The notes under the pieces: generated by a model
The model's input: the letters and a program-made list of their open reading frames with translations, nothing else
The model's database searches: none
Told to the model about the DNA's origin: nothing
Shown here: piece by piece, positions 791 through 60,271 of the stretch
Position numbering within the stretch: the first letter of the stretch is position 1
Layout of the letters: each line of letters opens with the position of its first letter
Made by a program: the position numbers and the translations under genes
Assembly: GCA_036339375.1 (NCBI GenBank)
Contig: JAYZBC010000025.1
Location: 27,271 to 91,270 of the forward strand
DNA from: Pseudomonadota bacterium
GTDB lineage: Bacteria; Pseudomonadota; Alphaproteobacteria; MPNO01; UBA2964
Length of the DNA stretch: 64,000 nucleotides
Direction: 5' to 3'

Positions 791-935
791 TTAGCCCTCC
801 ACGACGCAACAGCCCAAAAAATCATTGTTTAACAAAATTTAGTTTATTTTAGTTAAACTAACAGGGCCGTTTCCAGTTGGATATTAGTTTCTGTAACTTA
901 AATGTTGCCTGGAATCAATTTTCCCTATGATACTC

Positions 936-964
936 TTGACAAATTGGAAACAAAGTCGATACTA
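936..964 (+). promoter_or_regulatory. Possible sigma70-like promoter for korA (TTGACA, 17-nt spacer, ATACTA)
   Basis: TTGACA at about 936-941 with a weak -10-like hexamer 17 nt downstream, inside the 275-nt intergenic region upstream of korA. The -10 match is poor. Confidence 0.2.
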
Positions 965-1066
965 ATTTGCAAAATTTGTTAGTATACAAACAAGTTATCT
1001 TTTGGCTAGTGAACCCGATTCAGGAATTCACTGAAAAAAGAAAAAGGACCACCAAGCTAACATAAG

Positions 1067-2932
1067 ATGGCAACAAAATTAAACGATGCTGAGGAAAATA
1101 ACCGCAAGGTCCTAGATTCTGTCGTAATTAGATTCGCTGGTGACTCGGGTGACGGAATGCAACTAGCGGGAACACAATTTACCCAATCTACAGCTTTAAT
1201 GGGAAATGATTTATCTACATTTCCCGATTTTCCTGCTGAAATTAGGGCTCCTGTTGGTACCACCTACGGTGTTTCTGCTTTTCAAATCAATTTTGCATCC
1301 CATGATATAAAAACCCCTGGTGACTCTCCTGACGTGTTAGTCGCCATGAACCCGGCTGCGTTAAAAGTCCACCTACGTGATCTTTTGCCAGGTGGGACTA
1401 TTATCATCAACCTTGGCGCGTTTACTAAACGTAATTTCGAAAAGGCAGGGTATGACAACAACCCTTTAGAGGATGGTACAGTAGACGACTACAGGGCAAT
1501 TAAAATTGATATTTCAAAATTAACCCTTGCAGCTCTCGAAGGAGTAGATGTCACTCAGAAGGAAGCCTTGCGAGCAAAAAACCTCTGGACCCTGGGCTTA
1601 ATGTGTTGGATGTACGGTAGAGACCGTCAGCCAACCATTGATTGGTTAACACAACGCTTTGCGAAACTTCCAAAAATTGCAGAAGCAAATATTGCCGCAC
1701 TCAACGCGGGGCATGCCTTCGGAGAAACTGCAGAACTGCCAAGCGAAATTAGCACATATATTGTACCCAAAGCTAAAGTAGAGCCCGGCATTTATCGTGC
1801 TGTTACTGGTATTGAAACAACGAGCTGGGGGCTTTTAGTAGGATCACAAAAAGCTGGTTTAAAGATTTTTTTTGCGTCCTATCCAATTACTCCAGCTTCA
1901 CCACTTTTGCATTCTTTAAGCAACCTTCGACCCTATGGTGTGGTGACATTTCAGGCAGAAGATGAAATCTCAGCAGCGTGTTCCGCATTGGGAGCATCTT
2001 TTTCTGGTTCGCTTGGAGTTACTTCCAGTTCGGGACCGGGTGTAGCCTTAAAGTCCGAAACTTTAGGACTTGCCATAGTAACAGAGCTTCCACTAATTGT
2101 CGTTAATTTTCAACGGGCTGGTCCTTCAACGGGGATGCCAACCAAAACAGAACAATCTGATTTATACCAAGCTGTTTTTGGTCGAAATGCTGATACCCCC
2201 ATGCCAGTAATTTCTGCTTCTACACCCTCTGATTGTTATGAATGTGCAATCGAGGCAGTGCGAATAGCTACAAAATATATGACACCGGTTATGCTGCTCA
2301 ACGAAGGATATCTTGCCAACGCTGCCGAACCAATGAAATTGCCTGATGTAGAAAATGTAAAACCTTTTCCAGTCAATTTTCATAACCAAACAGAAGGGTT
2401 TCATCCATATCTCCGCAACAAAGATACACTTGGGAGACCATGGGCAATCCCCGGAACTCCAGGCCTCGAGCATAGAATAGGTGGAATAGAAAAAGACTAT
2501 GACAGCGGCAATATTTCCTACGATCCAGAGAATCATCACAGAATGACAAAAGTTCGTGCAGAAAAAATAATTGGAATAGCAAAAGATATCCCAGAACAAA
2601 AAGTGACCTCTGGAAATTCTTCTGGAAAATTGGCCGTAGTAGGTTGGGGTTCTACATTTGGAGCAATAGAACAAGCAACAAAGCTTTGCCAAGATGATGG
2701 ACTCGATGTCGCACATATTCACTTACGCTACATTTGGCCGCTGCCACAAAATCTTGGAAACCTTTTAAAGGGTTTCGAAAAAATTATTGTCCCCGAAATG
2801 AACAATGGACAGCTTGTCACCTTACTAAGAGCAGAATATTTAGTGCCTGCTGAATCCTTTTCACAGATTAGCGGTCAGCCTTTCAAAGTATCTGATTTAG
2901 AACAAGAAATCCGAACCCAAATTCAGGACTAA
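1067..2932 (+). CDS. korA: 2-oxoglutarate:ferredoxin (2-oxoacid:acceptor) oxidoreductase alpha subunit
   Basis: 621 aa with pyruvate/2-oxoacid:ferredoxin oxidoreductase domains (e.g. ...GDSGDGMQLAGTQF...). Immediately followed by a TPP-binding beta subunit, the typical two-subunit KorAB layout. Confidence 0.8.
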   Translation: MATKLNDAEENNRKVLDSVVIRFAGDSGDGMQLAGTQFTQSTALMGNDLSTFPDFPAEIRAPVGTTYGVSAFQINFASHDIKTPGDSPDVLVAMNPAALKVHLRDLLPGGTIIINLGAFTKRNFEKAGYDNNPLEDGTVDDYRAIKIDISKLTLAALEGVDVTQKEALRAKNLWTLGLMCWMYGRDRQPTIDWLTQRFAKLPKIAEANIAALNAGHAFGETAELPSEISTYIVPKAKVEPGIYRAVTGIETTSWGLLVGSQKAGLKIFFASYPITPASPLLHSLSNLRPYGVVTFQAEDEISAACSALGASFSGSLGVTSSSGPGVALKSETLGLAIVTELPLIVVNFQRAGPSTGMPTKTEQSDLYQAVFGRNADTPMPVISASTPSDCYECAIEAVRIATKYMTPVMLLNEGYLANAAEPMKLPDVENVKPFPVNFHNQTEGFHPYLRNKDTLGRPWAIPGTPGLEHRIGGIEKDYDSGNISYDPENHHRMTKVRAEKIIGIAKDIPEQKVTSGNSSGKLAVVGWGSTFGAIEQATKLCQDDGLDVAHIHLRYIWPLPQNLGNLLKGFEKIIVPEMNNGQLVTLLRAEYLVPAESFSQISGQPFKVSDLEQEIRTQIQD

Positions 2933-2935
2933 CCC

Positions 2936-3961
2936 ATGAACATTCAGCCTTCACCTGAAAAATTGAAACCAAATGACTACGCATCCGATCAGGAAATACG
3001 CTGGTGTCCGGGTTGTGGCGACTACGCTATTGTAAAGTCCGTCCAACGAGCATTATCTGAACTTGGTGCAAACCCTGCTGAAACCGTTTTTGTGTCAGGA
3101 ATCGGTTGTGCGGCAAGATTTCCCTACTATATGGCAACGTATGGTTTTCATACCATTCATGGGAGAAGCCCTGCCGTTGCAACTGGAGTTAAACTAGCGA
3201 ACCCAGACCTCGATGTTTGGGTCATTGGTGGTGACGGTGACATGCTGAGCATCGGTGGCAACCACACACTTCATATCTTAAGGCGCAATATCGACGTTCA
3301 AGTCTTACTTTTTAACAATGAAATTTATGGCTTAACTAAGGGACAGTTTTCACCAACCTCGAAAATCGGAACCCGTTCACCCTCCACACCTGCGGGCTCT
3401 GTTGATTCCCCGATTTCTGCTTGTTCATTTGCTTTGGGATGCAATGCGCGTTTTATTGCCAGATCTGTAGATACAAATCAAAAACTCTTGCCTGGCCTCT
3501 TGAGGCAAGCAAAAGAGCACAAGGGGGCATCATTCGTCGAAATCATCCAGAATTGTATCGTATATAATGACGGTGTTTTCTCTTCTTTTACAGATAAGGC
3601 TAACATTCTTGATGGACAAATTGTGTGTGACCATGGAGAACCTTTGCTTTTTGGTAAGGAAAAGGAAAAGGGTCTCAGAATGAAACCAGGGAAGTTGGAA
3701 TTGGAGGTTGTTTCTATAGGGAAAGATAATATCAAGGAGAAAGATATACTACACCATGATGAGACAAGCCGTCCACTTGCATCAATGTTATCAGCTCTTC
3801 AACCTCCTAACTTTCCAGTAGCAATGGGAATTATTTATAGAGATCCGGCACCTTCTTATGAAACTTCTGTTCACGAACAAATTGCAGAAGTAACTAAAGC
3901 ATCTCCACCAGGTTCATTAAATGAGCTCCTTCATCAAGGACGCACCTGGACTGTGGTTTGA
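2936..3961 (+). CDS. korB: 2-oxoglutarate:ferredoxin oxidoreductase beta subunit (TPP-binding)
   Basis: 341 aa with N-terminal CPGCGDY cysteine motif and GDGD TPP-binding motif. 4-nt gap after korA. Confidence 0.8.
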   Translation: MNIQPSPEKLKPNDYASDQEIRWCPGCGDYAIVKSVQRALSELGANPAETVFVSGIGCAARFPYYMATYGFHTIHGRSPAVATGVKLANPDLDVWVIGGDGDMLSIGGNHTLHILRRNIDVQVLLFNNEIYGLTKGQFSPTSKIGTRSPSTPAGSVDSPISACSFALGCNARFIARSVDTNQKLLPGLLRQAKEHKGASFVEIIQNCIVYNDGVFSSFTDKANILDGQIVCDHGEPLLFGKEKEKGLRMKPGKLELEVVSIGKDNIKEKDILHHDETSRPLASMLSALQPPNFPVAMGIIYRDPAPSYETSVHEQIAEVTKASPPGSLNELLHQGRTWTVV

Positions 3962-4063
3962 AAAGGAATATTTAAAATACAACACTCTAAAAAATTTATA
4001 TTAGTGGGATGGTTCCTCTCATTGAATTTTAGACCACTATTTTAGGTGAAAATTTTTTAACGC

Positions 4064-5398
4064 TTGATCAAAATGGTAGATACTCAAAGTCGAAGTATTG
4101 CGATTGTTGGCTCCGGTCCAGGTGGGATGTATGTAGCTCAAGCTTTGGTTGAAAAAGCCCCGGGATCAAAAATCGATATCATTGATCGTTTACCTACACC
4201 CTTTGGGTTGATAAGAGGAGGTGTAGCACCTGATCATCAACACACAAAACGCGTCGACAAAAAATACTCATCAACGATATCTCTAAATGAAAAAGTGCGG
4301 TTTATCGGCAATGTTTCATTAGATCGAGATGTGAGTATACATGAGCTGACAAAAATTTATGATGCGGTGGTCTTAGCCTACGGTGCACCATATGACAAAA
4401 AGCTGGGGATTAAAGGAGAAGACAAAAAAAATGTATTTGGATCGAATGCATTTGTAGGTTGGTACAATTGTCATCCCGATTTTATAAACCTAAACCCAGA
4501 TCTTAAAATAAATTCTGCAGTTGTAATCGGTATAGGTAATGTTGCTATTGATGTCGCTCGTGTTTTATCTCGAACAACAACCGAGATGGCTACGACAGAT
4601 ATAGGCGAATATGCGATGAAAGCCATCGAAGTTTCTCCTCTGAAGGAGGTATATATGTTTGGTAGGCGCGGTCCTATAGAAGCCGCTTTTACCAACACGG
4701 AGCTAAAGGAACTGGGTGCCATGGAAGCAGCTGCCACAACCGTTGAGTTCGCACAGCTACCAAGCCAAGTTCCTAATAACCTCGATGATAAAGAAAAAAA
4801 AGTCAAAGGGCGTATTCTGGAAACACTTAAAGAGTTATCTGAAGCAAAACTAGGGGAAAAGCGTAGAGCTATTAAAATTAAATTTTTTGCTTCACCAGTA
4901 AAAATACTTGGTAACGAACAAGTGGAAGGAATTCGAATGGAAAAAACAGAAGTGAAAAACGGGCGATGTATTGGAACCGGAAAAACTTTTGACGTACCCT
5001 GCGAAATGGTAATCACCTGCATAGGATCACGAGCAGAACCGATTAAAGGTGTCCCCTTTGACACAAAAGCTGGAATTGTGACTCATAAGGATGGCAGAAT
5101 AGCACCCAGAATTTATGCAGCGGGATGGGTGAAACGCGGCGCGGTTGGAACTATTGGAACTAACAGACTAGATTCTTATGATGTTGCTGACATAATAATT
5201 TCTGACTTTAAAGGAGATAGAAGACCAGGTCCTGATCTTTTTGATTCACTCATTGATAGTCGAAAATTACGTCAAGTCAGTTTTGAAGATTGGTTGGCTA
5301 TTAAACAAAGTGAAGAAGAAGCCGCTACACCACCTGCACCCCGACGAAAATTTAATACCGTTGAACAAATGATACAAAATTTAAACCAAAAAACTTAA
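4064..5398 (+). CDS. fprA: FprA/adrenodoxin-reductase-like NADPH:ferredoxin oxidoreductase (FAD/NAD(P)-binding)
   Basis: N-terminal GxGxxG (IAIVGSGPGGMY), a second Rossmann motif (VVIGIGNVAIDVARVL), about 440 aa. Directly downstream of korAB. The start is probably the second ATG (MVDTQ...). Confidence 0.65.
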   Translation: MIKMVDTQSRSIAIVGSGPGGMYVAQALVEKAPGSKIDIIDRLPTPFGLIRGGVAPDHQHTKRVDKKYSSTISLNEKVRFIGNVSLDRDVSIHELTKIYDAVVLAYGAPYDKKLGIKGEDKKNVFGSNAFVGWYNCHPDFINLNPDLKINSAVVIGIGNVAIDVARVLSRTTTEMATTDIGEYAMKAIEVSPLKEVYMFGRRGPIEAAFTNTELKELGAMEAAATTVEFAQLPSQVPNNLDDKEKKVKGRILETLKELSEAKLGEKRRAIKIKFFASPVKILGNEQVEGIRMEKTEVKNGRCIGTGKTFDVPCEMVITCIGSRAEPIKGVPFDTKAGIVTHKDGRIAPRIYAAGWVKRGAVGTIGTNRLDSYDVADIIISDFKGDRRPGPDLFDSLIDSRKLRQVSFEDWLAIKQSEEEAATPPAPRRKFNTVEQMIQNLNQKT

Positions 5399-5399
5399 T

Positions 5400-5849
5400 T
5401 TAATCTTCCGATGTATCTAATTCTGCAACCTTGGAAAGTAAAAATAAAAAAGTATTTCTTTCTGAAAAACTCAAAGGTGCCAGCGTCTCATTTGTAACGT
5501 TTTTTGCAAACTCTACTAATTTTGAAATTGTTTTTTTGCCCTCATTACTCAAACTGATTATGAGGCGCCGACCATCTTTTGGATCTGGACGACGAACGAT
5601 CAAACCTCGTAGTCCTAACCTCTTAATAACCCCTTGCATTGTGGCAGCATCCATCGCCGTTAACCTTCCAAGATGGTTTTGGGAAACCTCGTCCAGGTCA
5701 CGAAGCTTTACCAAAGCGGCAAACTGGAGTGGTGTTAGTTGAGGGTCTCCAATGTTTTCTTGAAAAATTGTTGAATGACGTTGCCGGGCACGACGCAGTA
5801 AATGCCCCGCCTGTCTCTCCAGAATATATTGTTGCTTAAAATTCTTCAA
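5400..5849 (-). CDS. MarR-family transcriptional regulator
   Basis: 149 aa with the winged-helix MarR pattern (...LTPLQFAALVKLRDLDEVSQNHLGRLTAMDAATMQGVIKRLGLRGLI...). Confidence 0.8.
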   Translation of the reverse strand: MKNFKQQYILERQAGHLLRRARQRHSTIFQENIGDPQLTPLQFAALVKLRDLDEVSQNHLGRLTAMDAATMQGVIKRLGLRGLIVRRPDPKDGRRLIISLSNEGKKTISKLVEFAKNVTNETLAPLSFSERNTFLFLLSKVAELDTSED

Positions 5850-6034
5850 AGTCTTGTACCTACATCAGTCCATTATTTTTAGTTAGTATACAAATTTTTC
5901 CCAGAAAAACTAAGACTATCAAGAATTTGTGGGCCTAATACATTGTTAAAATGACATTTCCCGTTTAGCCATTATTAAATTCATTTTTTTACAGGTTGGT
6001 ACAGGTTGTTTAAAGATAAATACAGTAATACTGA

Positions 6035-7267
6035 TCAGGAAGAGCCAACAATGCCATCATTTTTCAACGAAAGGATTTCTTTTTCTTCTAATTTTAAAAC
6101 TTTTTTCAAAATTTCTTCTGTGTGTTGACCGAGGGTCGGAGGGGCTCCCTTGTATTCAAGGTTTTTGCCAACAAATCTTATTGGGTTAGCCACTTGAGGA
6201 ACTGATCCAGCTAAAGGATGAGATAACTCCATTTTCATATCACGGGCTTTGACCTGTGGGTGCTCAAACACTTGCTTTAAATTGTTAATTGGCCCGCAAG
6301 GAACGCCTACTTTTTCGAGTTCAACAATCCATTCTTTACTATTTCTTTGTTTCATAAATTTTTGAATTATAGGAATTAATATTTTTCGGTTTTTTACGCG
6401 GGCGGCATTAGTGGAAAATCTTTCATCTTTGGCGAGTTCTGCATGCCCAGCGATTTCAACAAACCTTTGAAATTGGCCGTCATTTCCTACCGCTATAATT
6501 AAAAATTGGTCCGAGGCTTCAAATGCTTCATAGGGAACAATATTAGGGTGTGCATTTCCCATCCGGTTAGGAGCTTCCCCCGTTACCAGGTAGTTCATCG
6601 CCTGATTTGCCATTGACGCAGTCGTAACATCTAAAAGAGACATATCTATATGACATCCTTTCCCACTACGTTCGCGTTGGGAAAGAGCACTTAAAGCAGC
6701 TATATTTGTATAAAGGCCAGTTAGAATATCTGTTAGCGCTACTCCTATTTTTTGCGGTCCAGACCCAGGTTTACCATCCGGCTCACCAGTTACACTCATA
6801 AGGCCACCCATAGCTTGAATCAAAAAGTCATAACCTGCCCGGTTACTAAAGGGCCCAGTCTGGCCAAATCCAGTAATTGAACAATATATTAAACTAGGAT
6901 TAATTTGTTTTAAATCGTCATACCCAAGCCCATATTGTGATAACCCCCCCTTCTTATAATTTTCAATCAACACATCCGAAACAACGACCAATTGGCGCAA
7001 AATCTCCTGACCATCCGATTTCGCAATGTCTAGAGCCAAAGATTTTTTACCTCGGTTTGCTGATAAAAAATAAGCAGATTCTTTAGTCTGATTACCCTCG
7101 GAATCAACAATAAAAGGTGGGCCCCATGCTCGGGTATCATCTCCTGTCCCCGGCCTTTCAATTTTAATTACTTCTGCCCCTAGATCAGCCAAAGTCTGTG
7201 CAGCCCAGGGCCCAGCCAGAATTCGGCTCATATCTAACACACGTATGTGTGAAAGAGGGGCAGTCAT
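6035..7267 (-). CDS. Family III CoA-transferase (CaiB/BaiF; SUGCT-like, likely succinyl-CoA:glutarate CoA-transferase)
   Basis: Start set at the in-frame ATG (MTAPLSHIRVLDMSRILAGPW...), giving about 410 aa. Conserved family III motifs are present. Sits 31 nt downstream of a glutaryl-CoA-dehydrogenase-like gene. Confidence 0.75.
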   Translation of the reverse strand: MTAPLSHIRVLDMSRILAGPWAAQTLADLGAEVIKIERPGTGDDTRAWGPPFIVDSEGNQTKESAYFLSANRGKKSLALDIAKSDGQEILRQLVVVSDVLIENYKKGGLSQYGLGYDDLKQINPSLIYCSITGFGQTGPFSNRAGYDFLIQAMGGLMSVTGEPDGKPGSGPQKIGVALTDILTGLYTNIAALSALSQRERSGKGCHIDMSLLDVTTASMANQAMNYLVTGEAPNRMGNAHPNIVPYEAFEASDQFLIIAVGNDGQFQRFVEIAGHAELAKDERFSTNAARVKNRKILIPIIQKFMKQRNSKEWIVELEKVGVPCGPINNLKQVFEHPQVKARDMKMELSHPLAGSVPQVANPIRFVGKNLEYKGAPPTLGQHTEEILKKVLKLEEKEILSLKNDGIVGSS

Positions 7268-7298
7268 TTTTTTACGGAATTTTGCACTTGGAAAAGGA

Positions 7299-8522
7299 TC
7301 ATACGAAAGCTTGTATTCCCGTTTGTGCACGCCCTAGAATTAAGGCATGGATATCATGCGTACCCTCGTAAGTGATCACTGTTTCCAAATTCATAACATG
7401 ACGAATTACATGATATTCATCAATAATACCATTTGCTCCATGCATATCTCGAGAGGTTCTAGCAATATCGAGTGCTTTTCCAGTGCAATGACGTTTCATT
7501 AAAGAAATCGCTTCTGGAGCGCACTTTCCTTCGTCCATCAACCGACCCAACCGTATGCAAGACCCCAAGCCAACTGTAATCTCTGTCTGCATATCAGCTA
7601 GTTTTTTCTGAATGAGTTGATTAGATGCTAAAGGTTTGCCAAATTGAGTGCGTTCCATCACATAATTACGGGCCGCGTGCCAGCAAAATTCTGCAGCGCC
7701 TAACACACCCCAAGCTATTCCATACCGGGCATTATTAAGACAACCAAAGGGACCACCCAGCCCTTTAGCCCCCTCCAACTTATTTTCTTTCGGTACAAAG
7801 ACATTATCCATAACGACTTCGCCTGTTAATGAAGCTCGTAAAGAGAATTTACCTTCCATTTTTGGCGCGCTGAGCCCTTTCATTCCTTTTTCAAGAATAA
7901 ATCCTCGGATTATGCCTTCATCATCCTTAGCCCAAATCACAAATATATCAGCAATAGGGGCATTTGATATCCACATTTTTGTGCCAGAAATTTGGTACCC
8001 CCCATCAACGTTTTTAGCTCTGGTTTTCAAACCTCCAGCGTCTGAACCGTGATCGGGTTCAGTTAAACCAAAACATCCAATAAACTCACCCTTAGCCAGC
8101 TTCGGCAAATATTTTTGACGTTGATCTTCATTCCCGTAAGCATAAATTGGCCACATTACGAGACTAGATTGTACAGATAAAACTGAGCGATAACTGGAAT
8201 CTACGCGCTCTATTTCTCGGGCAATAAGGCCATAGCTTACATAATTTACACCGGCACAACCGTATCGATTTTCAAGAGTTGATCCTAGAAGGCCGAGTTC
8301 ACCCATTTCATACATAATCTCTCTGTGGAATTTTTCCTTCCTGTTGGCTTCCAGAATACGTGTCATTAATTTTTCCTGGGCATATTGCCGGGTCGTTTCT
8401 CTAATTAATTTTTCATCTTCAGTCAGTTGCTCTTCGAAAAGCAAAGGGTCTTGCCAATCGAATTTTGCCCATTTTTTTATCCGGGCAATGTCGTCGACTG
8501 TTTTAACGGGTTCACTGGTCAT
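7299..8522 (-). CDS. gcdH: Acyl-CoA dehydrogenase, glutaryl-CoA dehydrogenase-like
   Basis: ACAD fold with strong resemblance to GCDH over the N-terminal half (...[42 protein letters not shown]...). Start placed at ATG 8522 with an AAGGAT SD 6 nt upstream. Confidence 0.7.
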
Positions 8523-8599
8523 GACAAAATCCTTAATGGGCCAAGAGCAACACTGGTCCACACGTTTTCAACGAAAACCAAACGCATTGGTTTTCAAAT

Positions 8600-8899
8600 C
8601 TATTCAGAATGCGGACGGGACATCCACATAGCTAGATCAAATGTGTTTAGATCTGCCGCACGCATCATTTCAGCAATTGCAACTACGGCTTCTGTCGCGG
8701 TAACTACATCTTTTTCTCGAAAAGGAGGAAAATAGGTGTCTTCATCTGTCAACTTCTTACAATAAAGTTTTGCTCCAGCGGCTAATAACATCTGGACGGT
8801 TTCCGGTGAAACAGATTCGGTACCGCCATCGTTCAGCACCTCTAGGGCACTCTTAAAAATTTGGCTGACCTCCTTTGCCATCTTATCAGATGATGACAT
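8600..8899 (-). CDS. Hypothetical 99-aa protein; its start overlaps the end of the Rieske gene
   Basis: ATG (MSSSDKMAKEV...) overlaps the last four codons plus stop of the upstream Rieske gene (ATGTCATCATCTGA) in the -1 frame. No recognisable domain. Confidence 0.4.
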   Translation of the reverse strand: MSSSDKMAKEVSQIFKSALEVLNDGGTESVSPETVQMLLAAGAKLYCKKLTDEDTYFPPFREKDVVTATEAVVAIAEMMRAADLNTFDLAMWMSRPHSE

Positions 8900-9251
8900 G
8901 GACTTCCCCATCTAAAACTTTAACGTCAAATTTCCGCAACCGAGCATTTTTATACCCCGGATGCACACCTGTTTTGATGTTAAATTCGTAGCCGTGCCAT
9001 GGGCAAACAATATGCACATCCTCGTCTGACCAAGTGAGGCCCTGACTTGTTTTATCTTCACCAAGCAATTCTACAACACGATTAAGAATGCGCCCTTGAC
9101 AAATTGGACCGCCCTGGTGAACACATTTGTTTTCATAAGCAAAAAATTCCCCATCAACAAAAAAGACGCCAATTTCTAAGTCACCCTGCGCAATTACTTT
9201 ACGGCCGCGATCTTCAAACTCCTCCTCGCGACCTACATATACGTCCGCCAT
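8886..9251 (-). CDS. Rieske [2Fe-2S] domain ferredoxin
   Basis: 121 aa with Rieske boxes CVHQGGPIC and CPWHGYEF. No oxygenase alpha subunit is adjacent. Confidence 0.7.
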   Translation of the reverse strand: MADVYVGREEEFEDRGRKVIAQGDLEIGVFFVDGEFFAYENKCVHQGGPICQGRILNRVVELLGEDKTSQGLTWSDEDVHIVCPWHGYEFNIKTGVHPGYKNARLRKFDVKVLDGEVHVII

Positions 9252-9271
9252 GTCTTTTCCCCTATTGTTCT

Positions 9272-10516
9272 TTATTTTTTAATATCTAAATTAAATAACC
9301 TTACGGCATTTTCACCCAAAATATTACGTTTGGCCTGCTCATCCAAAAAGGGTAGATTATAAATTGTACTGGGTGGATTGAAGTCCCAGTGTGGCCAGTC
9401 AGATGCGTAAAGTAGCTGCGTTTCGGCCTTTACAGCCTTAAAGGTCTCTTCTGTTAAACCCATATTTGCCGTCTCAATGGGCTGGCAGGTGTAATACATA
9501 TCCGCCATATACTCACTAGGTAGTTTTTTCAACAATGGTGCCTCCGAAGGACGCATCATATATTCAGAATCAAGACGTTGCATTAGAAAAGCCAACCATG
9601 CTAGGCCTGATTCAATCCAAATAACAGGTAATTTAGGAAAACGTTCCTGCATACCGTGTACAATCCAATTAGTCATATGCACGATATTGCACAAGACAAA
9701 AGACACAGAATGCATAGAGATGAACAAGTCTAACTGCTTCATCCAATCGTCACCCCAAGTAAGGCCGGCATGAAACGCAAGGGGCAAACCACGTTCTTCT
9801 AATTCTTTATAAATGGGAATATATTGATTATGATGCACCGGCTTGTAACGGATCGCCGTAATCATAAACCCCATAACGTTTGGGTTTTCTCCAAATTCTT
9901 TAATTATTTTTAAACAAGTGTCCGGTTCTGAAATCGGTAAATATAATAATGTTTTTACCCGGTCATCAGCCGGCAAAATTCGTTCACATACCCAACGATT
10001 GTAAGCAAGAGCCAACTGTGCTTCCACACGTGGCTGCGGATGCGTCCCCAGCTGTAACAGGTTTCCGGGGAATAACACTTGAAAATCCAAACCCATGGCA
10101 TCTAAAGACCGGCGCATAAGGGTAACATCACGATGAACGCTCTTATCGTCTACATCTTCTGCTAATTTTTGTTGATGTGGTATCCGCCCACCCGCATCCT
10201 GATAACGTAATCCCGGTGTCGCATTTGAAAGCCCGGGTGCTCCTCCTGTCCGCGATTGAAATTCTTGTGCATAGTGTTTAAGTATTGGATCATCTAAATA
10301 TTCTACGACCTCACGCCAAGAACTCATTTCTGAGTGGTGAGCATCAACATCAACTATGGTCCAATCATCAAAACCATTTTCTATACGAAACTTTGTTTCA
10401 TGCGCCAAAATATCACGAGTATCTGTGTTTATCGTAATTTGGTTAAGGAGTTCTCTTGTTTGTTCTACCCCACTATCCATAACGGTAACCTCCACGTTAA
10501 ATTCCGTCGTTAACAA
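9272..10516 (-). CDS. Amidohydrolase-2 (PF04909-type) metal-dependent hydrolase/decarboxylase family protein
   Basis: 414 aa with VDVDAHH metal-binding start and further His/Asp positions typical of the ACMSD/LigW/IDCase family. About 45-aa N-terminal extension. Confidence 0.65.
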   Translation of the reverse strand: MLTTEFNVEVTVMDSGVEQTRELLNQITINTDTRDILAHETKFRIENGFDDWTIVDVDAHHSEMSSWREVVEYLDDPILKHYAQEFQSRTGGAPGLSNATPGLRYQDAGGRIPHQQKLAEDVDDKSVHRDVTLMRRSLDAMGLDFQVLFPGNLLQLGTHPQPRVEAQLALAYNRWVCERILPADDRVKTLLYLPISEPDTCLKIIKEFGENPNVMGFMITAIRYKPVHHNQYIPIYKELEERGLPLAFHAGLTWGDDWMKQLDLFISMHSVSFVLCNIVHMTNWIVHGMQERFPKLPVIWIESGLAWLAFLMQRLDSEYMMRPSEAPLLKKLPSEYMADMYYTCQPIETANMGLTEETFKAVKAETQLLYASDWPHWDFNPPSTIYNLPFLDEQAKRNILGENAVRLFNLDIKK

Positions 10517-10576
10517 CTTTCATGATAAACTAAAGTAGATAATAGAAAAACTGTTTAAAGGCAATGAGTGGAAAGA

Positions 10577-11011
10577 ATGTCAGAACAGCAAATTGAGACT
10601 AACCGGCTTTTAGTTTATCGATTTTACCATGAACTTTGGAATAATTGGCAATTTGATATTATAAGTGATTTACTGAGCCCGGACTTGGTTTTTCATGGTT
10701 CTTTGGGAACCCAAAAAACTGGTCATGAGGGTTTTATAGAGTATGCCAATCAGGTGCGTAGTGCCTTTCCTGACTTTAAAAATTCTGTCGAAGATATAAT
10801 TGCCGAAGAACAAAAGGTTGCAGCTTGCTTAACATTTCAGGGAACCCACGAAGGGAAAATTTTTGGTATTGAACCTACCGGAAGAACCATTCAGTTTGTG
10901 GGAATAGGTGTTTTTGTTTTTAGAGCAGACTTGATTAGCCATATTTGGGTTCTGGGTGACAGACTATCCCTCTTACAACAACTGAGTGATAGAGATCCCA
11001 TTTCGGAATAA
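10577..11011 (+). CDS. SnoaL-like / NTF2-like ester-cyclase family protein
   Basis: About 145 aa matching the predicted ester cyclase family (...YRFYHELWNNWQFDI...GHEGFIEYANQVRSAFPDF...). Start placed at ATG MSEQQ rather than the upstream GTG. Confidence 0.6.
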   Translation: MSEQQIETNRLLVYRFYHELWNNWQFDIISDLLSPDLVFHGSLGTQKTGHEGFIEYANQVRSAFPDFKNSVEDIIAEEQKVAACLTFQGTHEGKIFGIEPTGRTIQFVGIGVFVFRADLISHIWVLGDRLSLLQQLSDRDPISE

Positions 11012-11033: not shown

Positions 11034-11064
11034 TAAGAAGACCCAAGCGATCTCTGGGCCTTCT
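11034..11064. terminator. Possible bidirectional hairpin terminator between the convergent SnoaL-like and UbiD-1 genes
   Basis: GAAGACCCA / TGGGCCTTC stem with one mismatch and a 9-nt loop, flanked by A/T runs on both sides. Confidence 0.3.
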
Positions 11065-11079: not shown

Positions 11080-12537
11080 TTAATATTTAAATACGTTCGG
11101 GAACTTACTTCTCACTTCAGAAGCTAGTTCCGGAGATGTTTGTGCCACTGCCGGAAACGTGTCTATTCTCTCGTAAGGACGACAGGCATTAATGATCACA
11201 CGATTATTGAACAGAGTTTCTTCTTCATGCATTGGATCGAGACGGGAGGATTGGCATTGCGACAAATGCGTAATGTCCCGAGCAGGATCAGACCTTGTAC
11301 CCATTGCCCAAACAACATCATGTAAATTGGCTGCATCTATATCTTCATCCACTACAACAGTATAGCGCCCACAATAAGTTGCTGGGTTAAGTTGCGACGC
11401 CATTAGTCCAGCCTGAGTGGCATGCCCATAAAATCTTTGTTTTATTGAAACGACAACAAAGGTTCGACCGGAACCTGCTTCATGATGCCATACCCCGCGA
11501 ACATCTTGGACACCTGCTTTTTGCAATCCTTCAAGCAAGGTGACGGAGCGTGTAAAACACCGCTCAAACAAATGCGAATGCGGCGGTTTTTGACTTGCTG
11601 CACACGTCAAAATTGGGTTGCTCCGGTAATATACTTTTTTGATTTTAAAAATTGGATCCATTTCAGCGTCACCAGCATAATACCCGGTCCATTCCCCAAA
11701 GGGACCTTCCATACGTTCTTCATCCGGAACTTGTTCACCTTCAATAACAATTTCAGAATGTGCAGGAAAAGGTAAACCATTATCGCCAACAATTAAGTCA
11801 ATTGGCTTACCAGCAAGGCCTCCTTGAAAAGCAAATTCATCAACGTCGTCGGGAATTGTCATGCGCGCTGCAAGAAAATGTGTCGGATCAACGCCCACGA
11901 CAATTGTAGCAGGACAGGGTTCACCCTTTGCAAAATACTTTGCGCGCTGAATATTTCCTTGTTTCCCATTGGAAATCATTACGCCTAGAGTTTGGCCGTC
12001 ATGTACCATACACCGATAAGTTCCGGAATTAACGCGTCCGTTATCAGGGTCTCTTGTGACAACACCACACGCTGTCCCTATATAACGTCCTCCATCTAAT
12101 TCATGATGTACAGGTACAGGTAATAATTTTGTTATATCTATTTCATCTCCCTCCAAAATGTTTTCAAGGATAGGTCCATTTTCTACTATCCTTGGTGGAA
12201 TAGGTTCATGATTAAACATTTTTTCTCGGTAGGCGTTTAATAGAGCAAATCGATCAGTCGACAATTCTGTATCCATTCCTACTGCCAGTGCTAAACGAAA
12301 AGGAGACGCCAGCATCCCATACAAGCAACGGAATCCTTCTGGATAGCCGGGAACTTTATCAAACAAAACCGCTTTCGCTTTTTCGACACGCTCTCGATAC
12401 AAAACTTCAACAACCGCGCCCATTTCTTTATCCCAATGCGCACCATTTACCTTTTCAAGCTGACCGGCTTCTTCTGCAGCCGCTAAAAAATCTCGTAAAT
12501 CTGTTTGCGGGCTGAAGTTCTCCCTACCACCATCCAT
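11080..12537 (-). CDS. UbiD-family (prFMN-dependent) aromatic acid decarboxylase paralog 1
   Basis: About 485 aa with the UbiD hallmark DGGRYIGT, ...SEIVIEG... acidic motif and C-terminal oligomerisation region. Start placed at ATG (MDGGREN...) 8 nt after an AGGAGAG SD. Confidence 0.8.
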   Translation of the reverse strand: MDGGRENFSPQTDLRDFLAAAEEAGQLEKVNGAHWDKEMGAVVEVLYRERVEKAKAVLFDKVPGYPEGFRCLYGMLASPFRLALAVGMDTELSTDRFALLNAYREKMFNHEPIPPRIVENGPILENILEGDEIDITKLLPVPVHHELDGGRYIGTACGVVTRDPDNGRVNSGTYRCMVHDGQTLGVMISNGKQGNIQRAKYFAKGEPCPATIVVGVDPTHFLAARMTIPDDVDEFAFQGGLAGKPIDLIVGDNGLPFPAHSEIVIEGEQVPDEERMEGPFGEWTGYYAGDAEMDPIFKIKKVYYRSNPILTCAASQKPPHSHLFERCFTRSVTLLEGLQKAGVQDVRGVWHHEAGSGRTFVVVSIKQRFYGHATQAGLMASQLNPATYCGRYTVVVDEDIDAANLHDVVWAMGTRSDPARDITHLSQCQSSRLDPMHEEETLFNNRVIINACRPYERIDTFPAVAQTSPELASEVRSKFPNVFKY

Positions 12538-12597
12538 TTTCATCTCTCCTCTCATTTTTAAATCTTCTACCAACAAATATTGTTGTTATCGACATGT

Positions 12598-14094
12598 TTA
12601 ATCCCTTAGGTAGCCCCATCTTTCCCAAGCCTTTCGTCGGGCTTCTGGGGTAGGTGCGTTCACTTTTTGGAACTTATCTTTCCAATGAAATGGACGACAA
12701 GCATTAATGATAGCTCTACTGTTATAGAGCTTACCTTGTTCACGGTCATCAGGCGAAATAACTGGATCCAACGCGGAACTCCACATATTGTGAATTATAT
12801 CTATGCCACTTGCTGGATCACAGCGCGTACAAACTGCCCAAATAACTTCTTCTAAATTAGAAACATCAACATCTTCGTCAACTACCACAACAATCCGGCC
12901 CAAATAAGCACCAGCATGGCAGGTGGCTGTAATTTGGCCAGCCTGGGTCGCATGACCCGGATACCGTTGCTTGATAGACACTGCCAAAAATAAACGCGAA
13001 CCCCCAACCTCATGGGCCCAAACCTCCACAACATCAGGAACACCTGCTCGGTTAATATTTTCCTTCAATACAGCCGAACGGCTGATCGCCCGATAACGAG
13101 CATATTCATAGGGCATCCGAATATGAGCGGCACCTAAAATAATGGGATTGTTGCGATGATAAATTGCCGCAATATCTATCCAAGGCTCAGCCGCCATTAC
13201 TCCACCTTGATAGCCAAGCCATTCCCCAAAAGGGCCCTCACGACTTGTATTGCCCGGATTTATAAATCCCTCAATAACAATTTCAGAATTAGCTGGAAAA
13301 GGCAGTCCGGTATGTTTACCTTCAACACACTCTATGGCTTTTCCACGATAGGCACCCATCATATCAAGCTCACACATACCTTCGGGTGCTTCCGTCGAAG
13401 ATGTCAAAAATGATAATGGATCGCTGCCAACAACAACACATACTGGCATGGGTTTGTTATTTGCCAGGTACTTGTCTCTGTGGATCCTCCCATGTTTTCC
13501 AGGGGAAATATAAAGTCCCACTCTTTTTGCATCATGTACCATCACCCGATAGGTACCACAATTTATCCAACCGCTATCTGGATCACGTGTGATATTGAAA
13601 CAGCCTGTTCCAATATACCTACCCCCATCTTCTGGATTCCAAAGGGGTGATGGAAATTTCGTAATATCAACATCTACACCTTCGGTGATGTTTTCAAAAA
13701 TCGGGCCATCCCTAACAATAGCATGAGGTATAGGTGTGAGATTCCGGGTATGGCGATGATATGCCTGACTTAGTTCAAGTTTATTCAGTTGAGAGGGAAA
13801 TCCAAGTGTGAGGTTCTTTCGTGTACCCGTAAACCAGTTGATTAATAAACGAAACCCCTTCGGACTGCCCTTCACCTCATCAAACAGAATTGTGGGAGTA
13901 TTTTCGTCGTGACAGACGACTTCAACTACTTGACCAATATCGCTCTCCCAATCCGCTCCTTTCACAATTTTTAGGTCACCACGTTTTTTTACTTCCTCCA
14001 ACCAATCACGTAGATCAACATATTCAAGTGCGCAGCCTGCATTCGGGCCAACACCCTGTATAGTCTCGGGTTCAATTGCATTCCCCATTCCCAC
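12598..14094 (-). CDS. UbiD-family decarboxylase paralog 2
   Basis: 498 aa with DGGRYIGTG and NSEIVIEG motifs. By-eye identity is about 50% to paralog 1 and about 70% to paralog 3. GTG/ATG start is ambiguous. Confidence 0.8.
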   Translation of the reverse strand: MGMGNAIEPETIQGVGPNAGCALEYVDLRDWLEEVKKRGDLKIVKGADWESDIGQVVEVVCHDENTPTILFDEVKGSPKGFRLLINWFTGTRKNLTLGFPSQLNKLELSQAYHRHTRNLTPIPHAIVRDGPIFENITEGVDVDITKFPSPLWNPEDGGRYIGTGCFNITRDPDSGWINCGTYRVMVHDAKRVGLYISPGKHGRIHRDKYLANNKPMPVCVVVGSDPLSFLTSSTEAPEGMCELDMMGAYRGKAIECVEGKHTGLPFPANSEIVIEGFINPGNTSREGPFGEWLGYQGGVMAAEPWIDIAAIYHRNNPIILGAAHIRMPYEYARYRAISRSAVLKENINRAGVPDVVEVWAHEVGGSRLFLAVSIKQRYPGHATQAGQITATCHAGAYLGRIVVVVDEDVDVSNLEEVIWAVCTRCDPASGIDIIHNMWSSALDPVISPDDREQGKLYNSRAIINACRPFHWKDKFQKVNAPTPEARRKAWERWGYLRD

Positions 14095-14127
14095 ACTCGT
14101 TTAACGTAAGTTTTCCGTCAAAAGAAA

Positions 14128-14162
14128 TCCGGCCGCCGCACTAATGTTTGGTACGGCAGCCG
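14128..14162 (-). terminator. GC-rich imperfect hairpin between UbiD-3 and UbiD-2 (possible intercistronic attenuator or processing site)
   Basis: CCGGCCGCCG ... CGGCAGCCG inverted repeat (7/8 bp, about 15-nt loop) in an otherwise AT-rich 91-nt spacer, with a T-rich tract following on the transcribed (minus) strand. Confidence 0.3.
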
Positions 14163-14185
14163 ACCTCTATTTCAGTACACCCATT

Positions 14186-15679
14186 TTAAGAGGGTTTTTC
14201 GCAAAGGTGTCCCCACTTCTCTATAGCCTCTCTCATGACTTCTGGCTCCGGAGAATTTACAGGGGGAAATTCATCTTTCCAATGAAATGGGCGACAAGCA
14301 TCAATAATCGCCCGGCTATTAGTCAAATTGCCTTTGGCTTTTTCTTCCGGTGGAATTCTTGGATCCAAAGGTGTAGACCAACAATTATGAATGATATCAA
14401 TTGAGGTTGCTGGATCAGAACGTGTGATCATGCCCCAGATTAGCTCTTCCAAGTTAGTCACATCAATATCATCATCTACAACGATTACGTATTTACCTGC
14501 ATATGCCCCGAGATGACACATAGCAGCAACGTGACCCGTTTGCATTGCATGTCCAGGGTAACGTTGCTTTATTGAAATAGCGAGTAACATTCGGGCGGTA
14601 CCAACTTCGTGGGCCCAAACCCCTTGCACATCTGGCACTCCAGCCTTGACAATATTTTCTTTGAGTGCGGCTGAACGTGTAACTGCCCTATAACGTGCCA
14701 ACTCATCTGGTGGGCGCAGAGGTGGACAGCCCAAAATTATTGGATCGTTCCTGTGATAAATAGCCTTAATGTCTAAAACTGGCTCAGCACGCATTTTTGA
14801 ACCATAGTAGCCAGTCCATTCCCCGAATGGTCCCTCTTCAACCCGGTTACCAGGTTCAATAAAACCCTCTAATACAAGTTCCGCATTTGCAGGAAAGGGT
14901 AAACCAGTATGTTTGCCTTTGACGCATTCAATAGCATGCCCCCGATAGCCTCCTAAAATATCATATTCACAGGCACCGGGTGGCATTTCTGTACAACCCA
15001 TTAAGAAGGCCATGGGATCACCACCCAAAACGATACAAGCCGGCATAGGCTCACCATTAGCTTCGTATTTATCACGATGGATTCGACCATGTTTCCCGGG
15101 CGAAATGTAAAATCCGACTTGTTTTTTGTTATGGATCATAACCCGGTAGGTTCCGATATTTATCCAATCACTATCTGGATCACGCGTTACATTGTAGGAA
15201 CCCGTTCCTATATAACGTCCACCATCTTTGTCATGCCACATCGGCGTCGGAAATTTCTCGACGTCTATGTCATCGCCTTCCATAATATTTTCGAATACCG
15301 GCCCGTTATCAACAATTGCATGTGGAATTGGCTCTATAGAAGATAGATGTTTATGGACCCCGTCGGTTAGCTCAAGTTTGGTAAAGTCAGGGGAAAAACC
15401 CATTGTCATGCATTTTCGTTTACCGGCAAAGAAATTGATCATCATTCTAAAACCAGGAGGACAACCCGGCACTTCATCAAAAATGATGCAGGGCGCGTTT
15501 TCATCATGCTGGACAACTTCAGAAGCCAACCCGATGTCCTTTTCCCAACTCGCTCCCTTAACGACTCTAACTTCGCCAAGTTTCTCGGCTTCCACGATCC
15601 ATTCTCTCATATCTTCGTAAGTCATACGGGCACCAACATTCGAACCACTGTCAACGGCCGTAGCTTTTACATCTGCCAT
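14186..15679 (-). CDS. UbiD-family decarboxylase paralog 3
   Basis: About 497 aa with DGGRYIGTG and NAELVLEG motifs. Start placed at ATG 15679 (MADVKATAV...) with a GGGAGAG SD upstream. The ORF-track start 15754 is an upstream in-frame extension. Confidence 0.8.
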   Translation of the reverse strand: MADVKATAVDSGSNVGARMTYEDMREWIVEAEKLGEVRVVKGASWEKDIGLASEVVQHDENAPCIIFDEVPGCPPGFRMMINFFAGKRKCMTMGFSPDFTKLELTDGVHKHLSSIEPIPHAIVDNGPVFENIMEGDDIDVEKFPTPMWHDKDGGRYIGTGSYNVTRDPDSDWINIGTYRVMIHNKKQVGFYISPGKHGRIHRDKYEANGEPMPACIVLGGDPMAFLMGCTEMPPGACEYDILGGYRGHAIECVKGKHTGLPFPANAELVLEGFIEPGNRVEEGPFGEWTGYYGSKMRAEPVLDIKAIYHRNDPIILGCPPLRPPDELARYRAVTRSAALKENIVKAGVPDVQGVWAHEVGTARMLLAISIKQRYPGHAMQTGHVAAMCHLGAYAGKYVIVVDDDIDVTNLEELIWGMITRSDPATSIDIIHNCWSTPLDPRIPPEEKAKGNLTNSRAIIDACRPFHWKDEFPPVNSPEPEVMREAIEKWGHLCEKPS

Positions 15680-15732
15680 AAAATTTCTCTCCCTAAGTAA
15701 ATACGTCCCATTTCCAATTATTCTCGAAAATA

Positions 15733-15823
15733 GGCAATACACAATTTGCCACAAATTTTAAAAAAGGTAAAAGTTTTCGAATGGCAATACAAAAACTTTT
15801 GAAAGACTAGAATTATGCCATTC
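15733..15823. promoter_or_regulatory. Cluster of inverted and direct repeats upstream of UbiD-3 (candidate operator plus promoter)
   Basis: GGCAA-N8-TTGCC inverted repeat at about 15733-15750. (A/T)GGCAATACA repeated directly at about 15732 and 15781. GAATGGCA...TGCCATTC inverted repeat at about 15779-15823. All lie in the 190-nt gap between the 2OG oxygenase stop and the UbiD-3 start. Confidence 0.3.
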
Positions 15824-15946
15824 TAATACAGAAGTCACGTAAAGCTTTAAAAATTTTAACTTATTTTTGGATATTATTTAGATACTGGGAAATGAGGTAT
15901 TAGCAAAATAAGCGTGGAAAACAATATTATAATGGCTAAACGAATT

Positions 15947-16864: not shown

Positions 16865-16895
16865 AATATTTATTCTCCCAAAACATCAGGTTATT

Positions 16896-18440: not shown

Positions 18441-18526
18441 GCTATCATTATCCTGCCTGTCAATTTTTTCTGTCGATAAAAGGTTCTCTTAAATCTGAGT
18501 TTAACATGACAGCGATTTTTGAAAAA

Positions 18527-56935: not shown

Positions 56936-56944
56936 AAAATTATT

Positions 56945-57382: not shown

Positions 57383-57431
57383 CCAACTTTAGATGAGCAA
57401 TATTCAAAATAGGACAAAAACTTTTAAATCA

Positions 57432-57506: not shown

Positions 57507-57538
57507 GTTTCGAAGTGCTGTGATAATTGTATCATAAA

Positions 57539-60206: not shown

Positions 60207-60271
60207 TTCTATCCTTTAAATTTTTAGACATGCTTAGTGCCAATACGTCCTTATTGCAGTAGAATTGAATT

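Follow-up and report, generated by a model that had tools for sequence, protein, structure and literature searches.

A predicted amidohydrolase-related oxygenase, its Rieske ferredoxin and a constant 99-residue partner in a putative nicotinate–glutarate locus of an alphaproteobacterium

The amidohydrolase-related dinuclear oxygenases (AROs) form a recently recognised superfamily of about 17,000 sequences, nearly all of them annotated as amidohydrolases and very few with a known substrate. They were originally found through neighbouring small Rieske proteins: AibG is the ferredoxin of AibH1H2, and SfbR docks onto SfbO via Trp85, stacked on the residue termed gamma5. The signature of the superfamily is an N-terminal D-x-H motif together with a C-terminal D-x-P-H-x-D/E motif, neither of which occurs in the characterised hydrolases and decarboxylases of the Pfam family PF04909 (Liu et al. 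2026). The non-oxidative PF04909 decarboxylases, such as ACMSD, LigW and gamma-resorcylate decarboxylase, have a mononuclear or metal-free site formed by other N-terminal motifs. Here, a stretch of 64,000 nucleotides from a Pseudomonadota bacterium of the Alphaproteobacteria (GenBank assembly GCA_036339375.1, contig JAYZBC010000025.1, positions 27,271 to 91,270 of the forward strand), referred to as the window, is shown to carry a six-gene minus-strand array that begins with a gene for a PF04909 protein, a predicted ARO. It is followed by genes for a small Rieske [2Fe-2S] ferredoxin (rFd), a 99-residue protein (s99), a glutaryl-CoA dehydrogenase (GCDH, gene gcdH), a family III CoA-transferase and a MarR regulator.

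The assignment of the PF04909 protein is based on its motifs and on its sequence and fold matches. The C-terminal motif was accepted only within a PF04909 fold and with at least about 200 residues ahead of it. The window protein contains VDVD46-A-H48 and SD361-W-P-H364-W-D366-F, both invariant in 26 homologues (55–97% identity) and both aligning to the metal motifs of 8sm7, 8sm6 and 8sm9. A 26-homologue profile matched 8sm7, 8sm9, 8sm6, 8sm8 and AibH2 (6m1w_B) in the PDB at E values of 1e-49 to 6e-32, the 8sm-series top matches being AROs from the Rittle laboratory. With this profile all ARO chains range from 1e-49 to 7e-5, with PtmU3 and DitZ the weakest, and the PF04909 decarboxylases (gamma-resorcylate decarboxylase, LigW and ACMSD) reach just 4e-13 to 1e-7. 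The AlphaFold2 model (pLDDT 78.5, pTM 0.83) places residues 43–48 in a strand. When it was compared with the PDB by Foldseek, ranks 1–20 were all AROs, the best with target-normalised TM-scores of 0.78–0.80, and decarboxylases appeared from rank 21. On motifs and matches, the protein is judged to be an ARO-type oxygenase and not the amidohydrolase-2 decarboxylase for which it had been taken in a first reading of this DNA, made from the sequence alone.

The residues around the metal motifs also bear on the cofactor. Low-potential, Mn-preferring AROs are recognised by a hydrophobic gamma1, a hydrophilic gamma2 and an aromatic gamma4, usually with a Rieske ferredoxin as neighbour. In the window protein, gamma4 is Trp365 and gamma5 is Phe367, the pattern of ferredoxin-using low-potential AROs, and the predicted cofactor is Mn/Fe or Fe2. 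The loop at residues 77–107 (GAPGLSNATPGLRYQDAGGRIPHQQKLAEDV) is modelled at a pLDDT of 30–46, and G79, G90, Q94, G98, R99, H102 and E108 are invariant across the family; this loop could be a partner-docking site or a lid element. A second PF04909 protein of 355 residues is encoded elsewhere in the window (47524–48591, minus strand) between spoT and pdxJ. It has an N-terminal D-A-H and a C-terminal D-Y-G-H-H-D and misses the strict ARO signature because Gly replaces Pro in the C-terminal motif.

The criteria used for ARO-type ferredoxins were a soluble protein of fewer than 250 residues with C-x-H...C-x2-H ligands, a gene adjoining a PF04909 gene and a surface Trp at the interface. The window rFd shows all of these AibG/SfbR-like features. 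C43, H45, C83, P84, W85 and H86 are invariant in 51 Rieske proteins adjoining homologous ARO genes, and W85 corresponds to the interface Trp of SfbR. By analogy with AibG and SfbR, rFd is regarded as the ferredoxin partner and presumptive electron donor of the ARO, a known type of redox partner where the sequence-only reading had seen an orphan. No second Rieske domain was found in the 64-kb window, and the earlier statement that no Rieske oxygenase alpha (large) subunit is encoded here therefore stands. In related loci, cited below by L numbers, a VanA-like Rieske oxygenase alpha subunit of about 345–355 residues adjoins the MarR gene (L001, 16125–17180; L163, 13643–14677; L165, 19091–20158; L166, 18523–19593). 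It recurs in marine Rhodospirillales relatives of the window and in Roseobacter clusters around hnr, the gene annotated as 6-hydroxynicotinate reductase.

The 99-residue open reading frame (ORF) downstream of the Rieske gene is a real gene and not a chance ORF. A single-sequence search returned 89 close homologues, all named hypothetical and without a Pfam domain, and a profile search returned at least 1516 clusters at 90% identity. An exhaustive search with a hidden Markov model (HMM) gave 730 representatives at 50% identity, and those listed are nearly all stand-alone proteins of 70–165 residues. Other annotators have also called s99 as a gene.

The occurrence of s99 was followed by HMM searches of six-frame translations in 79 genome loci, four earlier loci and the window. 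The ARO gene is accompanied on the same strand by both rFd and s99 in 49 loci and by neither in 32. Where rFd is present, s99 was detected in 49 of the 51 loci (really 50, given that the discordant L055 has both by tblastn), and it is absent from all 32 loci without rFd. Three gene orders occur (ARO-rFd-s99, rFd-s99-ARO and ARO-s99-rFd), with s99 always adjoining the Rieske gene. Moreover, the two small genes are found together in metagenomic loci whose ARO is just 45–52% identical, and the 14-nt overlap between the Rieske stop and the s99 start is kept in plasmids of Phaeobacter and Neorhizobium. The s99 homologue on the Phaeobacter gallaeciensis/inhibens plasmid is WP_040104531.1.

The alignments of s99 show P59, T69, D88, W92 and R95 as invariant, in the motif VTATE...LNxFDLAMWxxRP, and no conserved Cys or His. 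Among 20 members no common Pfam hit was obtained, even at E ≤ 1, and NCBIfam likewise gave no usable hit for s99; a Foldseek search of the PDB with the s99 model found no fold match. An apparent ARO-s99 fusion in L146 was rejected, the long ORF being shown by translation to be an out-of-frame artefact of high-GC DNA, and no fusion was seen among the 150 of 730 representatives listed, where the one long hit is repetitive. In soil Xanthobacteraceae (L034, L040, L043, L063, L065 and L146), s99 carries a basic N-terminal tail of 20–50 residues rich in Lys, Arg, Ala and Pro that the marine versions lack. No description of a partner of about 100 residues was found in the searchable literature, ARO papers included, and the Aib cluster table has none. 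The ARO-Rieske pairing is already known; the constant 99-residue partner is new as far as the searchable literature shows. It is put forward as a candidate third component of the oxygenase, most likely a docking, effector or assembly subunit translationally coupled to rFd, and may be a structural or effector subunit that becomes ordered upon its partner.

The next two genes of the array point to glutarate. The acyl-CoA dehydrogenase scores 619 bits (E 2e-185) against human GCDH (1sir) and about 583 bits against Burkholderia GCDH, compared with 254 bits for ACX4 and at most 221 bits for all other non-GCDH members of the family, and a place among generic acyl-CoA dehydrogenases is therefore not borne out. 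The alignment keeps the Arg of DSxYRS and the Glu of YEGTHDIH, which, as in human GCDH, we take to be the residue that binds the gamma-carboxylate and the catalytic Glu, respectively. Judged by these scores and residues, the enzyme is a true decarboxylating GCDH. The CoA-transferase matches human SUGCT (9br7) at E 3e-111, and its best NCBIfam model is succinate–glutarate CoA-transferase NF052585 (518 bits, below the cut-off of 750). These matches support the pairing of a gcdH-like gene with a SUGCT-like family III CoA-transferase gene that the sequence-only reading had named. Long GC-rich hairpins, REP-like or terminator-like, lie between these two genes in L001 (13196–13295), L005, L006, L012 and L013, where the window has a spacer of just 31 nt.

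The gene content and operon-like arrangement first proposed for the six genes were recovered in full: the ORF listing returned all six at the coordinates given before, and their domain labels agree with Pfam. The ARO and Rieske genes are separated by 20 nt, the Rieske gene and s99 overlap by 14 nt, and gaps of 38, 31 and 185 nt follow. The likely start codons of the ARO and the GCDH were chosen from homologue lengths. For the ARO, ATG 10480 is the most likely start, within an ORF that reaches a TTG at 10516. For the GCDH it is ATG 8522, within an ORF of 7299–8561, so that the s99–gcdH gap becomes 77 nt instead of 38. No terminator-like site was found among the ARO, rFd, s99, gcdH and CoA-transferase genes. 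A terminator or structured RNA in the s99–gcdH spacer was considered and rejected, since the spacer contains no more than a 9-bp hairpin, which lacks a U-tract, and folds with a z-score of −0.45.

The MarR regulator provides the most specific clue to the chemistry. Among solved structures 2nnn is its closest relative and BpsR of Bordetella (6pcp, E 8e-28) the next; the matches to PcaV (1e-15) and CouR (1.5e-6) are far weaker than that to BpsR. BpsR comes off DNA with 6-hydroxynicotinate, which is held by Tyr15, His23, Arg26 and His32. Tyr8, His16, Arg19 and His25 of the window protein align with these four contacts at a constant offset of 7. Each of the 16 distinct MarR sequences recovered, the window's among them, keeps all four, while neither 2nnn nor the Roseobacter MarRs retain both His residues. 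The MarR protein is therefore of BpsR type and apparently built to bind 6-hydroxynicotinate or a close analogue. This narrows the earlier suggestion that it senses an aromatic acid, which looks correct.

The marR genes of 14 related loci are preceded by a palindrome, TTTGTRYACAAACAA, at a distance of about 35–60 nt where measured and of about 117 nt in L142. One 13-mer of this palindrome family occurs exactly twice in the 64 kb, as the two predicted operators of Table 1. Copy 1 lies 33–45 nt upstream of marR, within the region 5850–6034 singled out beforehand; the other region singled out, 15733–15823, holds no copy of the 13-mer (up to 2 mismatches) or of the 15-mer consensus (up to 3). Copy 2 lies just downstream of a TTGACA/TACTAA promoter ahead of the genes for a 2-oxoacid:ferredoxin oxidoreductase (OFOR), and equivalent predicted operators are found upstream of OFOR alpha in L005, L006 and L009. 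In L012 and L013, the palindrome is present upstream of ARO, of gcdH and of marR, and therefore ARO and gcdH belong to one regulon there. Looser patterns gave only chance-level hits in the window. A Phaeobacter MarR beside the ARO, rFd and s99 genes (hereafter the triad) was tried as an orthologue of the window MarR and rejected when no alignment was found.

The ARO promoters of window-type loci have another sequence, TTGGTTTATCAT, in common and not the MarR palindrome. The TTGGTTTATCAT-like element, which lies about 60–75 nt upstream of the ARO start (window 10500–10530) and is kept in L001, L004, L006, L007 and L009, could serve as the −10 region of a promoter or be bound by a different regulator. 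The divergent pairing of the ARO gene with a SnoaL gene is also kept in close relatives.

Upstream of copy 2 the window begins with part of an hnr homologue. From position 1 to 11011 the order is hnr, transcribed away from the operator, and in the other direction OFOR alpha, OFOR beta and FprA; then marR with its operator, the CoA-transferase gene, gcdH, s99, rFd and ARO; and finally SnoaL. The 263-residue hnr fragment has 63–66% identity to the products of plasmid genes of Neorhizobium, Sulfitobacter, Sagittula and Pseudosulfitobacter that carry the annotation 6-hydroxynicotinate reductase; a full-length homologue of 497 residues is present in L163, and no Pfam or NCBIfam model hit was found for the fragment. 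Around the annotated hnr genes lie genes for an XDH-type Mo hydroxylase, FNR, UPF0280, MarR and the VanA-like oxygenase, together with two of the 'amino acid synthesis family'. No Mo hydroxylase was found in the window. An 'amidohydrolase family protein' beside hnr in Roseobacter was examined as a possible ARO and rejected, having no similarity to it; it is probably of enamidase type. The FprA-type gene keeps its position beside marR in relatives. Its product is a candidate reductase for rFd and/or the ferredoxin pool of the OFOR; encoded in the OFOR operon, it would suit ferredoxin/NADP(H) exchange for Hnr just as well.

The linkage of the triad to the glutarate genes was traced through related loci. 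Of the genome loci, L001 and L004–L009 have gcdH and the CoA-transferase gene downstream of the triad, and among metagenomic relatives with an ARO of at least 74% identity and enough flank, gcdH comes right after s99 in 16 of 19. A sister clade with an ARO of 64–66% identity (L012, L013, L015 and L017) has lost rFd and s99 and keeps ARO, gcdH, the CoA-transferase gene and marR. The glutarate link is thus a trait of this marine clade in particular. In L017-type loci (L085, 7125–9756), a QRPTase-like gene and a gene for a 599-residue glycosyltransferase-family-3/PYNP protein are divergent from ARO.

Alphaproteobacterial Hnr homologues have been reported to be 42% identical to the Eubacterium barkeri enzyme and to mark the THON route, which in Azorhizobium caulinodans runs 'via glutarate' (PMC3511419). 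It is moderately probable, in our view, that the locus is the ferredoxin-supplying and glutarate-consuming part of an Azorhizobium-type reductive route for nicotinate, or a related pyridine carboxylate, under a BpsR-type repressor and with an ARO system embedded in it. The placement of an ARO in a nicotinate/glutarate regulon would be new as far as the searchable literature shows. The route would run from nicotinate to 6-hydroxynicotinate and THON, and after ring opening to glutarate, glutaryl-CoA and crotonyl-CoA. In work by Kitts and colleagues from 1992, glutarate was reportedly transthioesterified with succinyl-CoA and then oxidatively decarboxylated to crotonyl-CoA, and these steps match exactly the CoA-transferase and GCDH of the operon.

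Family assignments, motifs, co-occurrence, operator copies and synteny are the observations on which this proposal is built; what it adds to them is a putative place and step for the ARO in the pathway, a ligand for MarR, an electron path and a role for s99. Three modules may be pictured. In the first, the ARO, rFd and s99 would make up a multicomponent monooxygenase with rFd as its electron carrier, the electrons probably coming from NADPH via the nearby FprA-type reductase. In the second, a succinyl-CoA:glutarate CoA-transferase and GCDH would take glutarate to crotonyl-CoA. In the third, the BpsR-type MarR would repress at the marR site and at the promoter region shared by hnr and the OFOR-FprA genes. 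Two candidate steps are considered for the ARO, either an O2-dependent 6-hydroxylation of nicotinate in place of the Mo hydroxylase (step A) or the oxidation or deformylation of ring-opened 2-formylglutarate to glutarate (step B). A bolder form of the idea is advanced tentatively and is itself unlikely: the triad would be a ferredoxin-driven Mn/Fe oxygenase for a nicotinate step that lacks a gene (A or B), with s99 as an obligatory new class of subunit, for docking, gating or metal loading, in a large share of ferredoxin-dependent AROs. Homarine catabolism was discarded as a substrate context, the published hom operon being flavin-based and without a Rieske or PF04909 component.

Several observations weigh against the nicotinate proposal or the parts assigned within it, and a number of them favour the view that the genes are independent neighbours. 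On that view the triad would hydroxylate an unrelated compound, while gcdH, the CoA-transferase gene and marR would serve general glutarate, lysine or nicotinate catabolism and the synteny would be lineage-specific. Most loci with the triad have no gcdH, and their surroundings and partner genes vary widely. Where ARO identity is 58% or less, Xanthobacteraceae have Mo hydroxylases together with GMC oxidoreductases, Aminobacter has SSADH beside GMC and lig/pob-type genes, and Neorhizobium has a TPP enzyme; the ARO family therefore has many substrates. Even in nearer loci the link is not constant, since L008 has about 4.5 kb inserted between the triad and gcdH (CN-hydrolase and TctC genes and a deiodinase-like ORF) and L010, L098 and L100 have other genes, and no gcdH, after the triad. 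No predicted operator was found upstream of ARO or gcdH in window-type loci, and the 77-nt spacer with its 9-bp hairpin separates s99 from gcdH. Roseobacter hnr clusters, moreover, are without an ARO, and the identity of hnr rests on the names given by other annotators and on the reported 42% identity to the E. barkeri enzyme. As for the oxygenase itself, the closest solved ARO, D3EI84 (8sm7), is an orphan, and gamma1 is Ala47, borderline and ambiguous for predicting Mn/Fe or Fe2, which is why no commitment to either is made here. The helical AlphaFold2 model of s99 has low confidence (pLDDT 70), and its most conserved part, the C-terminal half, is the least confident. Against independent neighbours stand the common strand, the short gaps and the lack of any terminator between the genes, an adjacency that 16 of 19 close relatives maintain at ARO identities as low as 74%, and its persistence in the 64–66% clade that has no rFd or s99, where the same operator lies ahead of ARO, gcdH and marR. 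Mere neighbourhood is held to be unlikely. In L008 (15643–16326) and L010 (13492–14229), two adjacent short ORFs of 95 and 124 residues with AhpC/TSA and iodothyronine deiodinase matches were also seen; the pair resembles one gene split by an in-frame stop, possibly a UGA selenoprotein.

A different source of glutarate can also be imagined, in which the substrate of the ARO is a C5/C6 nitrogen compound (5-aminovalerate, pipecolate, piperidine or a betaine, for example) that is hydroxylated at the C-H beside its nitrogen. The semialdehyde of glutarate or of 2-aminoadipate formed in this way would feed gcdH, and the OFOR would turn 2-oxoadipate into glutaryl-CoA. The chemistry of SfbO is just such an N-alpha C-H hydroxylation and that of AibH1H2 an amino-acid hydroxylation, and OCD/mu-crystallin and DHDPS-family genes lie nearby in the window. 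A DavA-like CN-hydrolase gene follows the triad in L008, but in that one locus only. The operon has no aldehyde dehydrogenase or aminotransferase gene, the MarR keeps all four contacts for 6-hydroxynicotinate, and a predicted operator lies at an hnr-type gene; an aliphatic amine or amino-acid route is accordingly thought improbable. The sequence-only reading had instead joined a decarboxylase and an orphan Rieske protein into a carbocyclic aromatic route leading from the UbiD cluster to glutaryl-CoA, controlled by a MarR responsive to aromatic acids or to CoA esters of these. This cluster (minus strand, 11080–20092) consists of three tandem paralogues of 498, 498 and 522 residues at 11080–15754 and, upstream of them, genes for a 2OG-Fe(II) oxygenase, an AMP-dependent ligase and a fourth, divergent UbiD, and no UbiX-like gene was seen among the annotated ORFs. 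The ligase would suit such a route, as would the distant kinship of MarR to PcaV and CouR and the recurrence of UbiD genes near the ARO family: they follow ARO directly, on its strand, in L021, L024 and L029, stand between ARO and gcdH in L012–L017 (beside QRPTase-like and phosphoribosyltransferase-like genes) and lie upstream of ARO in the window, L009 and L095. The window's UbiD cluster is a transcription unit of its own: SnoaL, on the opposite strand, and a terminator-like hairpin stand between it and the ARO operon, and L001, L004–L007 and L163 lack it. The oxygenase motifs missing from characterised PF04909 decarboxylases, the fold ranks, the known type of partner for the Rieske protein and a MarR far closer to BpsR than to PcaV or CouR speak against the route as well. 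Its decarboxylase and orphan-ferredoxin parts are already largely refuted, and as a whole it is very improbable. The part that stands is the passage from an aromatic compound to glutaryl-CoA, plausible with an N-heteroaromatic such as nicotinate; the UbiD cluster, a separate unit absent in several close relatives although UbiD genes recur near the ARO family, may or may not feed into it. That UbiD decarboxylates pyridine dicarboxylates would fit the theme, as a speculation.

The features discussed are collected in Table 1. Further along the window, at 55415–63309, lies another catabolic block with genes for an AMP-ligase, a second family III CoA-transferase (57539–58765), a YjgF-like protein, two FAA-hydrolase family proteins and a molybdopterin oxidoreductase (60272–62425).

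Table 1. Features of the ARO locus and its surroundings, in window coordinates
Feature	Coordinates	Strand	Basis
ARO, 402 aa	9272..10480	-	PF04909; ARO motifs; ARO PDB matches by sequence and fold
Small Rieske [2Fe-2S] ferredoxin (rFd), 121 aa	8886..9251	-	Pfam Rieske, Rieske_4
s99, 99 aa, without Pfam domain	8600..8899	-	Homologues; co-occurrence with rFd
Predicted decarboxylating glutaryl-CoA dehydrogenase (gcdH), 407 aa	7299..8522	-	Human GCDH 1sir match
Family III CoA-transferase, SUGCT type, 410 aa	6035..7267 (ORF to 7330)	-	PF02515, 438 bits
Predicted BpsR-type MarR repressor, 149 aa	5400..5849	-	Pfam MarR; BpsR 6pcp, E 8e-28
Predicted operator copy 1, GTTAGTATACAAA	5882..5894	.	Exact 13-mer; conserved palindrome
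Predicted operator copy 2, GTTAGTATACAAA	978..990	.	Exact 13-mer; divergent hnr/OFOR promoter region
hnr homologue, 5' part, 263 aa	1..790	-	TTG start 788-790; runs off window
OFOR alpha (1067-2932) and beta (2936-3961)	1067..3961	+	Pfam POR, POR_N, TPP_enzyme_C; TIGR03710, 612 bits
Adrenodoxin-reductase/FprA-type NADPH:ferredoxin reductase	4064..5398	+	1cjc, E 8e-83; FprA 1lqt, E 3e-78
SnoaL-like protein, divergent from ARO	10568..11011	+	Pfam SnoaL; synteny
Terminator-like hairpin downstream of last UbiD gene	11036..11064	-	Terminator scan

The locus gives one large alphaproteobacterial clade of AROs a context, in which glutarate genes stand beside a regulator whose ligand site suits 6-hydroxynicotinate and beside an hnr/OFOR/FprA regulon. 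This would bring the search for a substrate down to a handful of compounds. The missing s99 may explain the weak or surrogate-only activity of orphan AROs rebuilt from two components. The idea is directly testable, as the same triad is carried on plasmids of cultured, genetically tractable Phaeobacter, Neorhizobium and Aminobacter. The lesson for annotators is to take an 'amidohydrolase' and an adjoining 'orphan' Rieske ferredoxin for an oxygenase system.

Among the known systems, the 2-aminoisobutyrate monooxygenase AibH1H2-AibG-AibF of Rhodococcus wratislaviensis resembles the window in having a PF04909 TIM-barrel hydroxylase and an adjoining small Rieske ferredoxin. Its dinuclear Mn/Fe site has a predicted counterpart in the window, and its NAD(P)H reductase a candidate one. 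AibH2 is among the best sequence and fold matches of the window ARO. However, the Aib hydroxylase is a heterotetramer of two PF04909 paralogues, whereas the window has one PF04909 gene, with an identity of about 24%, and the Aib reductase is the FMN/[2Fe-2S] protein AibF, whereas the candidate reductase of the window is of FprA type and lies outside the ARO operon. SfbO/SfbR and the orphan low-potential AROs D3EI84 (8SM7), W7L2Y2 and B6JH23 have the same two motifs, aromatic gamma4 and gamma5 and an adjoining rFd with the C-P-W-H Trp, and 8SM7 is the best PDB match of the window ARO by sequence and by fold. The window ARO differs from them in its identity of about 23–26%, 40 extra N-terminal residues and the conserved insertion 77–107.

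The glutarate pair is comparable to human GCDH and SUGCT, the window GCDH aligning over nearly its full length and the CoA-transferase resembling SUGCT. The known bacterial gcdH pair is under the LysR-type GcdR, whereas the window pair is part of an oxygenase operon beside a MarR gene. BpsR of the Bordetella nic locus has its four ligand contacts in common with the window MarR, which also adjoins nicotinate-pathway genes (the hnr homologue). The likeness concerns the protein only, as the BpsR paper defines no operator, and Bordetella uses the oxidative (NicC) route, while the neighbours in the window point to the reductive THON route. For that route the closest parallel is found in Azorhizobium and Eubacterium barkeri, where, as proposed for the window, an hnr homologue and a ferredoxin-reducing system go with glutarate as end intermediate. 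The window MarR belongs to one subfamily with the MarRs of Roseobacter hnr clusters, at 48–50% identity. Known hnr clusters contain a Mo hydroxylase, FNR, UPF0280 and two 'amino acid synthesis family' genes, and no ARO; in the window, OFOR and FprA replace FNR, and the rest of its nicotinate cluster would lie outside the window.

Finally, s99 may be set beside the effectors MmoB and DmpM and the assembly factors MmoD and DmpK, which are also proteins of about 100 residues, without a cofactor motif, encoded in the operon of a dinuclear-metal oxygenase. The likeness is a functional analogy only: s99 shows no similarity to any Pfam family, and its predicted all-helical fold finds no counterpart in the PDB. 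Unlike this comparison set, it tracks the ferredoxin gene and not the hydroxylase gene.

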